Positions 1,829 to 53,024 of a stretch of DNA of 64,000 bases are shown here, piece after piece. Position 1 is the stretch's first letter, and every line of letters begins with the position of its first letter. The stretch covers positions 5,760,001-5,824,000 of the forward strand of contig OY970194.1 in the NCBI GenBank assembly GCA_963708075.1, written 5' to 3'. The notes beneath the pieces are model-generated. The model was not told where the DNA came from. It searched no databases and saw only the letters and a list, made by a program, of their open reading frames with translations. The position numbers and the translations under genes are program-made. Source of the DNA: Sedimentisphaerales bacterium. GTDB taxonomy: Bacteria > Planctomycetota > Phycisphaerae > Sedimentisphaerales > Anaerobacaceae.

Positions 1829-2228
1829 CGCGAAGAATCTACGTTTCTTCGAAGAATTGCATCTACATCGAGCGGGAGGGGAGCGGGCCAGCCCTTAGTT
1901 TAGAGTTTAGCGGGTATCTCATCATCACGGGGGCAGGACGGAAGGCAGGGGGCGCATTTTCAGTATTGGATGCATGGAGAAACGCGGGCGAGTCTTCCAG
2001 GTTGATGCATAGGGACACAGCGCTGTAAGTCACCGGGCCACAAGGGGTTGCGATATTTTCACTGGGTAACAGAAATTTCTGCAACAATCTGGCTCGGCGA
2101 ACGTTTCTAGTATATGGGCGTATGCCCATATTCCAAATCAAACAGCAAAGATCAAAGATCAAAAATCAAGATCGGAAGTCCGTTGGGGGGGCGGGAGGCC
2201 CTTCGGAATGCGGATGGATGGGCGATTC

Positions 2229-2597
2229 TGCGAAACAAACCCAATCTGTCCTGCCGGGCTGGCGGTGGGCACAGCCACCCTACGCGAGGGCCGATGTGCG
2301 AAACAAAGCCAAATGTGAGGGGGGCGGGGAGCTTGGCCGGCTATCTGGGACCAGCGGGGACGCTCACCCTACCTTGTGAAACAAAGCCAATTTGCCGGGC
2401 GCAGTCCGGACACGGCCGGGCGGTGGATCCTGCGAAACAAAGCCAATTGGGAGGGGGTGGGGATTGGGAGTCAGGGGATCAGGTGACGGATTGTGCGAAA
2501 CAAAGCCAAACCTGGGAGGAATAGGATATCCGGGGGAGGGTCATACGATATATAAGGCCGCCCTATCGCAGATGTGATTGTGCGAAACAAAGCCAAT
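2229..2597 (+). repeat. Array of six 16-17 bp direct repeats (TGYGAAACAAASCCAAW) with unique spacers; not a canonical CRISPR
   Basis: Copies start at 2229, 2297, 2375, 2431, 2494, 2581; spacers of 51, 61, 39, 46, 70 bp; no cas genes in window. Confidence 0.9.
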
Positions 2598-2693: not shown

Positions 2694-2721
2694 TTGCCGC
2701 AAGGCCACTGGTGCTTATAAT
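2694..2721 (+). promoter_or_regulatory. Putative sigma70 promoter for tRNA-Leu
   Basis: TTGCCG-N16-TATAAT about 120 bp upstream of the tRNA. Confidence 0.5.
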
Positions 2722-2841: not shown

Positions 2842-2924
2842 GGCCGAGTGGCGGAATGGCAGACGCTGGGGACTTAAAATCCCCTGCCCGCAAGGGCGTA
2901 TGGGTTCGAGTCCCATCTCGGCTA
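2842..2924 (+). tRNA. tRNA-Leu(TAA)
   Basis: Acceptor GGCCGAG/CTCGGCT, anticodon arm GGGGA-CTTAAAA-TCCCC, long variable arm, T-arm ATGGG-TTCGAGT-CCCAT; CCA not encoded. Confidence 0.96.
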
Positions 2925-3087
2925 CTGGGTGGCTATAGGAAAGGTAGCACGGGTGTCCCGCCCGTGAAACGACGACGATGCGCAGGGCTGAAGCCTGTCT
3001 TCGTGAAGGCAGGGGACTCCCGTGCTGCGATGAATCCGGCCTTCAGATACGTTTTCAGGCGGCCGGTCGTCGCTTTGGAGATACGCT

Positions 3088-4433: not shown

Positions 4434-4540
4434 TTACCATTTACGATTTACGAATTACGATTTATGATTCGAGCGATGCGTTAGCCACAATGGCGTCGCC
4501 ACCGACACGAATGGTAAATCGTAAATGGTAAATCGTAAAT
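4434..4540. repeat. Inverted pair of heptamer tandem repeats (TTTACGA)n/(AATCGTA)n
   Basis: Directly visible; similar heptamer tracts at 2147-2172, 14175-14321, 15442-15517, 36609-36684, 47611-47665, 48926-49005. Confidence 0.85.
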
Positions 4541-5280
4541 CCAAAGGCGAGATTAGAGCCGTACTGTTCGACCTCGGCGACACCATTTTGGACTTCGGCC
4601 GGGTCAGTACGACGAGGGCTTTCTGGCTCGGTGCTCGGGCGACACACACCTTTTTGAGGGAGCAGGGCCAGCCGGTGGCCTCTTTCCCGTGGTACTTCAT
4701 GCGAAACCTCGTGCGCCTTCGCATGAAGTACATGCTGTCCAACATCACGCGAAGGGATTTCGATTCCCTCGAACTGCTCCAAACGGTGGGCGTGCGCACC
4801 GGCGTGAGTCTTGCGCCGGAGCAGTGGGAGCAGTTTGCCTGGCTCTGGTATGAGCCGCTCGGCCGCTGTGCCCGGGTTGAGGACGACATCCGCCAGACGC
4901 TCGGCACGCTCAAGAGCATGGACCTGAAGCTCGGCATCGTGTCCAATACCTTCGTGAATCGCGCCTCGCTCGAGAGACACCTGAAAGTCATCAGCATCCT
5001 CGATTTCTTCCCGGTGCAACTCTACTCCTATGAATTCCACGTGCGTAAGCCCAGTCCGGTGCTCTTTCGCATCGCCGCGGAGAAGATCGGGGTGCCCGCG
5101 GAGAAGTGCCTGTTCGTGGGTGACCGGATCGATAACGACATTCTGCCGGCCATGGGAATCGGCATGAAAGCCGCCCTGAAAGAGGCCTACACCAACGCGG
5201 GCAAAAGGTTGCCGCAAGGAGCATACCGAATCCGCCGCCTCGCCGAGCTGCCGGAGCTGGTCCAAGAGATCAATCGGTAG
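4525..5280 (+). CDS. HAD-superfamily hydrolase
   Basis: VLFDLGDTILD motif I, IVSN, RKP, FVGDRIDND motif IV. Confidence 0.88.
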   Translation: MVNRKSKGEIRAVLFDLGDTILDFGRVSTTRAFWLGARATHTFLREQGQPVASFPWYFMRNLVRLRMKYMLSNITRRDFDSLELLQTVGVRTGVSLAPEQWEQFAWLWYEPLGRCARVEDDIRQTLGTLKSMDLKLGIVSNTFVNRASLERHLKVISILDFFPVQLYSYEFHVRKPSPVLFRIAAEKIGVPAEKCLFVGDRIDNDILPAMGIGMKAALKEAYTNAGKRLPQGAYRIRRLAELPELVQEINR

Positions 5281-14928: not shown

Positions 14929-16125
14929 ATGTCTGATGGGCTGAAACCATATGCCGTGACGGAGGCCGTGAGCAAAGGCCGAGCCTTTCCCGAGCCGCCT
15001 CACCCGTACCGCTCCGACTTCGAGCGGGACCGCGACCGGATCATCCACAGCTCGGCGTTTCGACGTCTCGAAGGCAAGACCCAGGTGTTCTCGCCCGGAC
15101 TCGACGACTACTATCGCTCCCGCCTGACGCACAGTATCGAGGTCGCCCAGATCGGCAGGACCATCGCCAAGGTGCTCGGCCTCAACGAGAGCCTTACGGA
15201 GGCGATCTGCCTGGCCCACGACCTGGGGCATCCGCCATTCGGGCACACGGGGGAGAAGACGCTCAATGAGTTGATGGCAGATCACGGCGGTTTCGAACAC
15301 AATGCCCAGACGCTTCGCATCGTCACTTTGCTCGAACATCCCTACCCCGCGTTCATGGGCTTGAACCTGATGTACGAGACCCGGCTGGGCCTGGCGCGGA
15401 AATGCGTCGAGGCAGTAGAGCGTAGGGCCAAACTGGCTTCGATTGCGGAATGTGGAATGTGGAGTGTGGATTCGGTTCGCGGTGCTACTCCGCACTCCGC
15501 ACTCCGCACTCCGCAATTCTCGGGGGAGATCAATTGCACGCTGGAGGGCCAAATCGCCGACGTGGCCGACCGCATCGCGTACAACTGCCACGATCTCGAG
15601 GACGGGCTGCGTGCCCGGCTGATCGAGGGCAACCAGATGCGGCACGTGCAGATCTATGTCGAAGCGACGCGAAAGGTGGGCGTCGAGCGAATCCCGGATT
15701 GGACGATCCGGCGGACCCGCACGGCCAAGACCATCACGGACCGGCTCGTCAGCGACTGCATCGACAACAGCCGCAGGCAGATCACCGACGCCGGCATCCG
15801 GACCGCCTACGACGCCTGCCATCGAGTGGAGGATCTGGTCTCGCTTTCGCCGGAAAGCGACCGGCAACTGGCGGAGCTCGAGCAATTCCTGTATGCCAAC
15901 TTCTATCACCATGAGAGGCTGCTCGCCGCGGCGCAGAGGACGCGAGGCTGGCTGACCGAGCTCTTCGAGCAGCTCTGTCGGGAGCCCCACAGGATGCCCA
16001 GCTATTTCCGCGATTTCATCCCGGAGTACGGCCTGCAGCGGGCCGTCTGCGACTACATCGCCGGCATGACCGACCGCTACTGCCTCAGGCTACTTGGCGT
16101 GACTGAGCCGACTCCCGGCCGATGA
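14929..16125 (+). CDS. dgt: Deoxyguanosinetriphosphate triphosphohydrolase (HD family)
   Basis: FERDRDRIIHSSAFRRLEGKTQV, RLTHS, HDLGHPPFGH, DYIAGMTD. Confidence 0.93.
   Translation: MSDGLKPYAVTEAVSKGRAFPEPPHPYRSDFERDRDRIIHSSAFRRLEGKTQVFSPGLDDYYRSRLTHSIEVAQIGRTIAKVLGLNESLTEAICLAHDLGHPPFGHTGEKTLNELMADHGGFEHNAQTLRIVTLLEHPYPAFMGLNLMYETRLGLARKCVEAVERRAKLASIAECGMWSVDSVRGATPHSALRTPQFSGEINCTLEGQIADVADRIAYNCHDLEDGLRARLIEGNQMRHVQIYVEATRKVGVERIPDWTIRRTRTAKTITDRLVSDCIDNSRRQITDAGIRTAYDACHRVEDLVSLSPESDRQLAELEQFLYANFYHHERLLAAAQRTRGWLTELFEQLCREPHRMPSYFRDFIPEYGLQRAVCDYIAGMTDRYCLRLLGVTEPTPGR
15442..15517. repeat. Heptamer-based palindrome (TGTGGAA-type x4 / ACTCCGC x4) in-frame inside dgt
   Basis: Directly visible; translated as IAECGMWSVDSVRGATPHSALRTPQF. 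Confidence 0.85.
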
Positions 16126-36593: not shown

Positions 36594-36693
36594 GGAATTT
36601 GCGACGGACGATTTACGATTTACTGCTGAATCGGCCATCAACCGGCGACTCTCCCAAAATCATAAATCGTAAATCGCAAATCGTAGATGTCAA

Positions 36694-44144: not shown

Positions 44145-44660
44145 CCCATTCGACTTCACTCAGGGCAGGCTCTTCGGCCGCGATCAGGATCATTTCACGC
44201 GGAGACGCGGAGGCGCAGAGAAAAACCCGACAAAGACATATTCTGAACTCTGCGTCTCTGCGTGAGACATAATTCTTTGGGTTTCAGCAAGGAGTCCGCA
44301 TGGGCTAAAGCCCATCCTACAAATTCCTTTGTGTTCTCGGTGGCTGAAAGAGCCTGGATTCCCGCCTCCGCGGGAATGACATTGTCGGAATCCGTGTTCA
44401 TCCGTGTCGTAAGAAGAAGGATCGGTGGGCGAAGCCCACCCTACCGGCCGGCTTGTGGCCCTTTCATTTTTGTTCGGGGTCTCTGTGTCCTCCGGGTTCT
44501 CGGTGGCGACTTACTCGTCTTGCGTCGTGCGGGATGGGGGGTGCGGGCGAATGATGATTCGCCCCTACGGGGGGCGTGTCTTGCCTTGGTCTTGTGCGTG
44601 TCCTTCTTACGTTCTTTCGTTCTGATCGTCCTAGCCTTGCGCGCGTTCCTCCGGGCTTCT
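44145..44660. repeat. Mosaic of several different palindromic repeat families
   Basis: TTCGACTTCACTCAGGGCAGGC; CACGCGGAGACGCGGAG/CTCTGCGTCTCTGCGTG; TGGGCTAAAGCCCATCCTAC; CTGGATTCCCGCCTCCGCGGGAATGAC; GGTGGGCGAAGCCCACCCTAC; GGGCGAATGATGATTCGCCCCTAC. Confidence 0.75.
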
Positions 44661-47584: not shown

Positions 47585-47678
47585 GGGAGACTCCCCCGCG
47601 AACGAAGTGTGATGGTCGATTTGTGATTTTTGATTTGTGAATCAACCATCAACCATCAACCATCACACTTCAGACTTC

Positions 47679-48917
<1,239 letters not shown>

Positions 48918-49008
48918 AAAGCGTCCTTATTGATTAAGGATTATTGATAATTGATTATTTGTCTGACTGCAGCAGTGCTGCGAATCATCCATCATCAATC
49001 ATCAATGC

Positions 49009-52949: not shown

Positions 52950-53024
52950 GGTAGGCATTGGTAGGCATTGGTAGGCATTGGTAGGCATTGGTAGGCATTG
53001 GTAGGCATTGGTAGGGTAGGCATT
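52950..53024. repeat. Tandem 10-mer repeat GGTAGGCATT (6 copies + 5-nt partial + 1 copy)
   Basis: Directly visible; abuts the left end of the 260-bp element. Confidence 0.95.

Follow-up and report, generated by a model that had tools for sequence, protein, structure and literature searches.

The closest described systems are composite non-autonomous repeats, i.e., BIMEs, BOX elements and MITEs, together with the TerS-pac pairs of phages and their satellites, CRISPR arrays and the 7-base repeat runs of Beggiatoaceae. BIMEs, REPs and REPINs were described as dispersed intergenic mosaics with GTAG-type REP palindromes (PMC3184786, PMC3733652, PMC2817692). As far as the accounts consulted go, BIMEs also carry IHF sites, and their unit is a series of regularly spaced REPs in alternating orientation. 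BOX, found in Streptococcus pneumoniae with the structure boxA-boxBn-boxC, is modular, variable in length, dispersed and non-autonomous, may give rise to read-through ORFs, and consists of a single module repeated in tandem and bounded by IS-like ends (PMC3049150). MITEs, including Correia and REP2, are gene-less derivatives that keep the promoter, ribosome-binding site and start codon of the parent, and possibly an IHF site (PMC3184786). It was also reported that TerS recognises pac sites and that satellites use their own TerS (PMC9006064).

The repeat array studied here resembles the composite non-autonomous repeats but differs from each family compared, and from CRISPR, in a feature that defines it. 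Like BIMEs it is a dispersed mosaic with REP palindromes, and the host genome has 13 matches to RAYT-type Y1 transposase genes. However, the repeat (hereafter R) is non-palindromic and directly oriented, REP pieces of several unrelated families are passengers, and the element comes with a leader of its own and with a gene that is not of the HUH type. The linked gene, in contrast to that of REPtrons, does not appear to encode an HUH (Y1) transposase, having no Pfam match and a strand-less predicted model. Unlike in BOX, the units differ from each other and are borrowed from other repeats, and the cognate gene belongs to no known family. As with MITEs, the array is a multicopy non-coding derivative of a gene-bearing parent; on the other hand, no terminal inverted repeats or target duplication were found at the ends, the parent gene is not a known transposase, and there is an internal, growing array. 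A 43-residue N-terminal module in common with phage genes at the TerS position and an asymmetric site beside the gene recall TerS-pac, whereas R is absent at the phage loci and the element has no TerL, capsid or integrase neighbour. A leader followed by direct repeats with differing spacers recalls CRISPR, but R is about 17 bases long, the spacers (18-254 bases) are shared and self-derived, there is neither a Cas1 match nor polarity, and the genome holds about 40 arrays. The likeness to the TAACTGA 7-base runs of Beggiatoaceae lies in a run just before the ribosome-binding site and in the 7-base runs that supply many spacers; here such runs are mere components, and the part of that account consulted mentions neither an R-like motif nor a partner gene (PMC4679880). 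No description of the element was found in the literature searched, which included few subscription papers, in agreement with the claim of an undescribed system made in a preliminary description of this DNA. It is real, neither a CRISPR nor an orphan, and apparently an undescribed dispersed element with a testable protein-motif pair.

The array in the window

The features of the window, i.e., the whole stretch of 64,000 nucleotides analysed, that belong to the array or adjoin it are as follows.

2020..2173, + strand: element leader of the family-1 type, homologous to the leaders of gene-bearing copies (alignment)
2026..2050, no strand: left-boundary site, an imperfect palindrome of 25 bases (TAA-N4-TT..AA-N4-TTR) present here as a weak copy (profile score 5.2 against 22-33 for the training sites)
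2080..2117, + strand: conserved promoter-like block TGCAACA..CGT..TATATGG (conserved alignment columns; putative promoter)
2137..2173, + strand: 7-base repeat run, ATCAAAG x5.4, in the same place as the 7-base run before the ribosome-binding site of gene-bearing copies
2229..2597, + strand: array of six R, array A33 of the 41 in the genome
2230-2244, 2298-2312, 2376-2390, 2432-2446, 2495-2509 and 2582-2596, + strand: R cores (motif scan)
2245..2297, + strand: spacer 1, a REP-type palindrome module common to A1, A3 and A41 (BLAST matches to 7 spacers of other arrays; global score 35 against a shuffle maximum of 9.5)
2313..2375, + strand: spacer 2, ending in a REP palindrome also dispersed outside arrays, common to A25, A13, A24 and A1 (BLAST matches, 12 outside arrays and 4 to other arrays; score 29.5 against 13)
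2391..2431, + strand: spacer 3, without a clear homologue (no BLAST match; a marginal score of 10.5 against a shuffle maximum of 8)
2447..2494, + strand: spacer 4, a degenerate G-rich 7-base run with marginal likeness to A38 (no BLAST match; score 12 against 10.5)
2510..2581, + strand: spacer 5, a module present in 12 spacers of 9 arrays with no convincing copy outside arrays (score 18 against 14)
2694..2721, + strand: predicted host sigma-70-type promoter of the tRNA, outside the element (promoter scan; the same block precedes the tRNA in most array-less relatives)
2842..2925, + strand: tRNA-Leu(TAA), a neighbour outside the element (Rfam)

The six copies of R reported earlier were recovered, all on the + strand within 2229-2597, with the consensus TGCGAAACAAAGCCAATT and 0-1 mismatch to the 15-mer, and their start-to-start distances of 68, 78, 56, 63 and 87 bases agree with the period of 56-87 given for them. 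Only two further matches to R occur in the 64-kb window, each with three mismatches; 1.67 matches are expected by chance, and a total of eight was reached in none of 100 shuffles. The copies are out of frame with each other, and the tails of homologous proteins read R in any of the three frames, which bears out the earlier statements that the copies fall in different reading frames and are conserved at the nucleotide level. In the Rfam scan of the window the tRNA alone reached the gathering score, with no CRISPR or other structured RNA family, and the predicted fold of the array is no better than that of shuffled sequences (z 0.23).

The AT-rich stretch previously noted ahead of the array is present, but it is not generic, being a conserved element leader that begins near 2020. 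The leader (2020-2170) aligns with those of the gene-bearing A6 and the gene-less A16 and A18, with a mean column identity of 64%. Since it aligns with the leader of a gene-bearing copy, the window array is a gene-less derivative. The ribosome-binding site and first codons of the gene are kept in 10 of the 32 gene-less arrays of the genome, while ribosome-binding site, first codons and gene remnant were undetectable in the window copy. The profile scan found only the weak left palindromic site in this copy and no internal one, and a sigma-70 scan of the + strand did not pick up the block at 2080..2117. The spacers had been thought unique, and this does not hold for spacers 1, 2 and 5, which have homologues in other arrays; the REP motif of spacer 2 has 79 copies outside arrays.

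Distribution of arrays in the host genome

The host genome, a single contig of 7.5 Mb with 60% GC and 93% completeness, contains 41 same-strand arrays of R with 291 copies. Nine of these arrays trail a multicopy gene and 32 are without it, and hence the window array is not the orphan that it had been taken for; of the checks proposed in the preliminary description, clustering and the search for a partner gene were both run; R was found clustered in the 41 arrays, and a consistent partner gene is present elsewhere in the genome. The element is multicopy, and gene-less copies have the same leader and array. Each position of the R core, AAACAAAGCCAA, is conserved in at least 95% of the 291 copies. 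A family-1 leader precedes 16 of the 41 arrays, as compared with 2 of 500 random gene-upstream windows; sigma-70-like leaders precede 16, although that pattern also matches 87 of 500 controls, and two leaders are sigma-54-like.

Two further ideas were considered and rejected. As a terminator on the - strand R scored in 39% of the 291 copies against 41-46% of the controls; the - strand terminator pattern was also seen at 25 of the 41 last repeats, a count without a matched control. Insertion ahead of co-oriented promoters did not fit the crude gene calls either, which place the downstream gene on the same strand in 20 cases and on the opposite strand in 21.

A38 and A39 (C1:6490051-6492610) lie around a 409-codon kinase-like ORF, in divergent or convergent orientation, share upstream sequence and are the only +/- pair within 3 kb. 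In A22 (C1:3464900-3465300) the REP module of a spacer contains an element of about 330 bases, which has inverted ends and a direct duplication of 11 bases, and an IS630-like element parts A22 from its leader. Single R-like sequences end a 7-base hairpin arm at C1:1548512, 2674020 and 2710677, which may be coincidental or may hint at how R arose. The sole reverse transcriptase gene is not adjacent to any array; the only reverse-transcriptase match (C1:1191349-1193600, open frame of 524 aa) precedes a long mosaic of many different repeat fragments, all on one strand, in which one R copy and the 25-base palindrome occur.

Origin of the spacers

The 250 spacers are 18-254 bases long (median 63.5). 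Another array was matched by 173 of them (0 in shuffles), and 125 matched the genome outside arrays (16 in shuffles), mostly at REP palindromes and 7-base tandem repeats, the sources being REP palindromes and the arms of 7-base hairpins, for instance those flanking four-helix-bundle genes. Out of 48 abundant repeat families 15 are represented in spacers (shuffles 0), large IS-like families being absent. REP modules ending in CTAC have tens to hundreds of copies outside arrays; a minority of spacers contain REP pieces, which are all oriented the same way. Four modules gave orientation counts of 31 vs 0, 12 vs 0, 6 vs 0 and 18 vs 2, and G exceeds C in 39 of the 41 arrays, consistent with the G-rich spacers noted in the window. 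Half of the 250 spacers have no match outside arrays and are left unexplained by the model presented below, and 92 fit none of the 12 motif classes.

Modules are duplicated within arrays and shuffled between them. The best cross-array likeness is much the same for first (0.395), middle (0.355) and last spacers (0.373). A record of serial insertions in the CRISPR sense, one of the options raised initially, is not supported, given this lack of leader-side polarity and the whole repeat-spacer units that are shared and duplicated between arrays; the search of phage and plasmid data that had been suggested returned no match for the window array. REP modules lie near 4 of the 13 Y1 transposase genes and in 23 of 200 random windows, and A4 is the one array that adjoins a Y1 gene.

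The partner gene

The multicopy partner gene, with one copy frameshifted, has nine of the arrays as its 3' tail. The protein starts with the consensus MATEAQIxANRxNAQKSTGPRTxEGKA and has a core of about 185 residues. In this core dN/dS was 0.20-0.67 for all 28 pairs compared, i.e., purifying selection acts on it. The tails beyond it are unconserved and represent read-through of array DNA; R in any frame was found in 126 of 150 homologue tails, with 2 in the control. Gene-bearing copies have sharp common left and right boundaries and unrelated flanks (boundary alignment), their homology starting about 15 bases to the left of the 25-base palindrome.

The family is large, with 23,901 representatives at 50% identity (E<=0.001), and the named members of the ten clusters looked up are all "hypothetical protein"; the best named relative comes from a Sedimentisphaerales MAG (51% identical), which makes the host a presumed planctomycete of the Phycisphaerae. 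No family in Pfam, NCBIfam or PHROG was above cut-off and no solved structure was matched by sequence. The predicted model is all-helical (pLDDT 88.9), without strands of 3 or more residues, and matched nothing in PDB or BFVD at E<=0.001, the best Z being 8.3 to a generic coiled coil. Its ESM Atlas neighbours are all hypothetical, with SEC-C as the nearest named cluster at 0.80. Neither the sequence-family nor the fold searches recovered a recognisable catalytic fold.

Linkage of R and the partner gene in relatives

R is paired with the partner gene across the genus and in some distant lineages. R occurs in all 23 congeners (4 to 419 copies; no control match) and the gene in 21 of them, with 1-22 matches each; among the two in which the query used did not find it, one (G006, 92% complete) has arrays. 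Of the 28 gene loci of relatives, 26 have R adjoining the gene, on the same strand in 23 and on the opposite strand in 11 (also or only inverted), while the reversed control gave 0. R was likewise found beside the gene in 5 of 7 other planctomycete loci, at one locus on a plasmid of the alphaproteobacterium Gemmobacter, and in 3 of 9 viral-collection loci with longer matches; conversely, all five genomes reached via the R-site pattern carry the gene. No R was found in the 12 gene loci of Acidobacteria and Chloroflexi. A sample of the phylum had a variant of R in 27 of 151 genomes, with more than five matches in the host genome alone, and viral contigs contained six single matches to the exact 17-mer, none in an array or adjoining the gene.

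The 3' ends of Terriglobia gene copies (L151:3527-3648) consist of another 30-base repeat, present three times, the core of which, GAAAACAAA, is common with R; a published repeat table may bear on this acidobacterial variant (PMC3174227). On a phage-like contig (L080:2970-3000) R stands just upstream of the start codon of the gene, after recombination-type genes.

The simplest layout in relatives is the gene followed by R, the 25-base palindrome and R, and the distance between consecutive R at gene loci is exactly 90 in 9 of 19 intervals. In the host genome the palindrome occurs in 16 spacers, with periods of 77-92, and at 65 further intergenic sites scoring at least 14, as compared with 1-6 for three column-shuffled profiles. 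We take its geometry to be that of an IHF/HU site, and by sequence it is a candidate for binding by an IHF/HU-family protein, for which the host has three genes.

Nature of the element

Based on the results of this study, the window array is a gene-less, i.e., non-autonomous, copy of a dispersed element, in which the protein probably binds to R in its DNA form and the arrays probably grow by recombination. The complete element would consist of the palindromic site, a promoter, the 7-base run, the gene and (R + spacer)n. R is taken as the site of the protein because it accompanies the gene throughout the genus, as well as in a few distant lineages, and does so in both orientations, and a DNA site is favoured over an RNA signal because both orientations are used and no pairing covariation was found. 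R is thus probably a site in double-stranded DNA to which the protein encoded by the element binds. Among the options of the preliminary description a putative protein-binding array fits best, and a consistent partner gene is present elsewhere in the genome.

The other parts of the reading differ in strength. The minimal right end in relatives, R - palindrome - R with a period of about 90 bases, might with about even chances be a structure in which a host IHF/HU-family protein bends the DNA and the element protein bridges two R. We consider it quite probable that the arrays grow and reshuffle by slippage and by gene conversion at R between the roughly 40 copies, taking in pieces of the surrounding REP palindromes and 7-base hairpin arms, and not by acquisition of the Cas type; the pattern of shared and duplicated modules is consistent with this process. 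More tentatively, the protein may be an adaptor that binds the ends and brings in a nuclease or recombinase supplied from elsewhere, the copies moving as DNA; movement as DNA is suggested because the copies carry sequence upstream of the presumed promoter. It is rather unlikely, though conceivable, that the element represents a new class of mobile DNA without a known transposase, in which a terminase-derived N-terminal module would read the site of about 17 bases and mobilise gene-less copies in trans, and in which arrays would actively sample small host repeats in one orientation as DNA landing pads or RNA guides.

Even the more cautious reading would have some consequences. A large unannotated protein family with many copies per genome is tied to a specific DNA motif, the function of the protein could be tested directly by one binding assay, and the element accounts for one class of spurious ORF tails and one source of false CRISPR calls. 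Were the protein to mobilise the element, transposition would proceed without a known catalytic fold; if the arrays were processed, they would form a repeat-spacer system directed at repeats of the cell itself.

Alternative explanations

Such processing is the core of one alternative, which we regard as unlikely: the arrays would be transcribed and cut at R into small RNAs cataloguing the cell's own REP and 7-base repeats, in the manner of a piRNA cluster, and would serve as guide, as sponge or in nucleoid compaction. Nearly all arrays are indeed one-stranded behind promoter-like leaders, with modules kept in one orientation and the excess of G over C mentioned above. Moreover, arrays of this layout occur in another planctomycete but are filled there with different 7-base modules; the commonest unit of the host is present 110 times in the host genome and 0 times in the other. 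The single orientation, however, is also expected from common descent of the modules, and the other planctomycete's own unit is rare in its genome (4 matches, 3 in the control, a weak test). Against cutting at R, the repeat is inverted at 11 of the 28 gene loci of relatives and lies upstream of the gene at one viral-collection locus; R as a hairpin was rejected, with no pairing covariation above shuffles in 8 pairs; and neither the fold of the window array (z 0.23) nor spacers of 18 to 254 bases suit a processed RNA.

It is quite unlikely that the protein is a derivative of the terminase small subunit and R a packaging-initiation site or decoy, which would draw in or divert the large terminase of an infecting phage, the dispersed arrays rendering the chromosome open to transduction. 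This explanation arises from 70 loci on viral contigs that match the protein, most over residues 1-50 only. The N-terminal 43 residues are common with the phage genes (hhalign 99.1%), a likeness by construction, as the phage set was chosen by the same motif. Among 63 such genes with a called downstream ORF, the terminase large subunit comes next in 30 (18 by PHROG 2 and 12 more by BLASTP), 3 of 20 match TerS PHROGs and one matches Pfam Terminase_4. Recognition of pac sites by TerS and the use of own TerS by satellites, as far as described in PMC9006064, would also suit it, as would a homologue located after a PriCT-2 primase gene on an 18-kb plasmid. By gene order the 43-residue module belongs to a terminase-small-subunit context, and it is most plausibly a nucleic-acid-binding part; fold searches with the partner and phage-protein models gave no TerS match (phage model pLDDT 68.7, best Z 5.3). 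On the other hand, the homology stops at residue 45, the remaining 140 or so residues being unrelated by profile comparison. R as pac site of the motif-bearing phages was rejected, since it was found at none of the 28 TerS-TerL loci examined (of 30), nor by a profile scan. Five queries and PF03237 detected no large terminase in the host genome (93% complete), and new insertions within one genome are left unexplained by packaging. On viral contigs L083-L142, terminase large subunits of about 600 aa missed by Pfam are preceded by cysteine-rich small-subunit-like genes.

The third alternative, likewise quite unlikely in our judgement, is a neutral one, in which the gene encodes a domesticated or duplicated autoregulated DNA-binding protein with R as its operator, the arrays are by-products of recombining small repeats, and nothing encoded by the element drives movement. 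The mosaic near C1:1192800-1193400, after the reverse transcriptase, could speak for it, as it combines a single R with the same modules as the arrays; so could the IS copies that interrupt A22 and A29/A30 (A29 and A30 being one array), the gene tails that are unconserved read-through, and the fact that a mobilising enzyme was not found. Neutral by-products would, however, hardly share sharp boundaries on both sides while their flanks are unrelated, or have an R core near-invariant over 291 copies while spacers diverge, and 1-22 gene matches in 21 of 23 congeners are also against it.

Both an orphan CRISPR array and an off-target product of Cas1-Cas2 would account for the direct repeats and the AT-rich leader but can practically be dismissed, as the genome has no match to Cas1 (PF01867; 93% complete), there is no Rfam CRISPR match and no polarity, the spacers of 18-254 bases are shared between arrays, and the window array matches no phage or plasmid, which upholds the original view that this is not a canonical CRISPR.

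History of the locus and its surroundings

The window array is lineage-specific at the tRNA-Leu locus. On its two sides lie the split gene of a glycosyltransferase and the gene of an HMGL-family synthase. The adjoining tRNA-Leu(TAA) at 2842-2925 is as first described, but its link with the array is incidental. The tRNA-Leu before the HMGL-family gene is kept in 18 of 23 relatives' loci with differing upstream genes, and an association was rejected, as none of the 17 relatives with upstream sequence has same-strand R before the syntenic tRNA and one has a single inverted R. In G007 a separate array precedes the HMGL-family gene, with no tRNA detected. In a congener (L054, G011:C604) an integrase gene adjoins a partial copy of the same tRNA-Leu, which means that the tRNA-Leu also serves as an attachment site of islands.

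No clean empty site was found in the relatives, none of which has both flanks conserved, and neither target duplication nor terminal inverted repeats were found at the aligned boundaries of gene-bearing copies; the inverted R pairs of relatives are internal to the tail. The left flank contains an abundant repeat in 13 of 24 copies, which are not independent, as compared with 255 of 1429 background windows. A metagenome scan for the orthologous locus found nothing. Contigs of run X1, possibly the source sample, match 2003-2153, 2171-2322 and 2584-2922 unchanged, and one X4 contig spans 2445-2610 with 6 changes, no gap and no turnover there, no piece from runs X1-X4 spanning the array.

Several other features of the window were observed. 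The split gene is a family-4 glycosyltransferase in two overlapping frames (685-1242 and 1190-1828), with a frameshift near 1200 that is either real or an assembly error. A copy of the most abundant REP-type hairpin of the genome (144 loci), a family that feeds spacers in 8 arrays, lies at 553-634. Intergenic hairpins with arms made of inverted runs of 7-8-base units are present at 4434-4541, 15447-15515, 36608-36685, 44197-44263, 47608-47665 and 48927-49006, their unit sequences being several and unrelated. A perfect 10-base tandem repeat of 6.6 copies at 52950-53015 adjoins a motif present at 15 genome loci.
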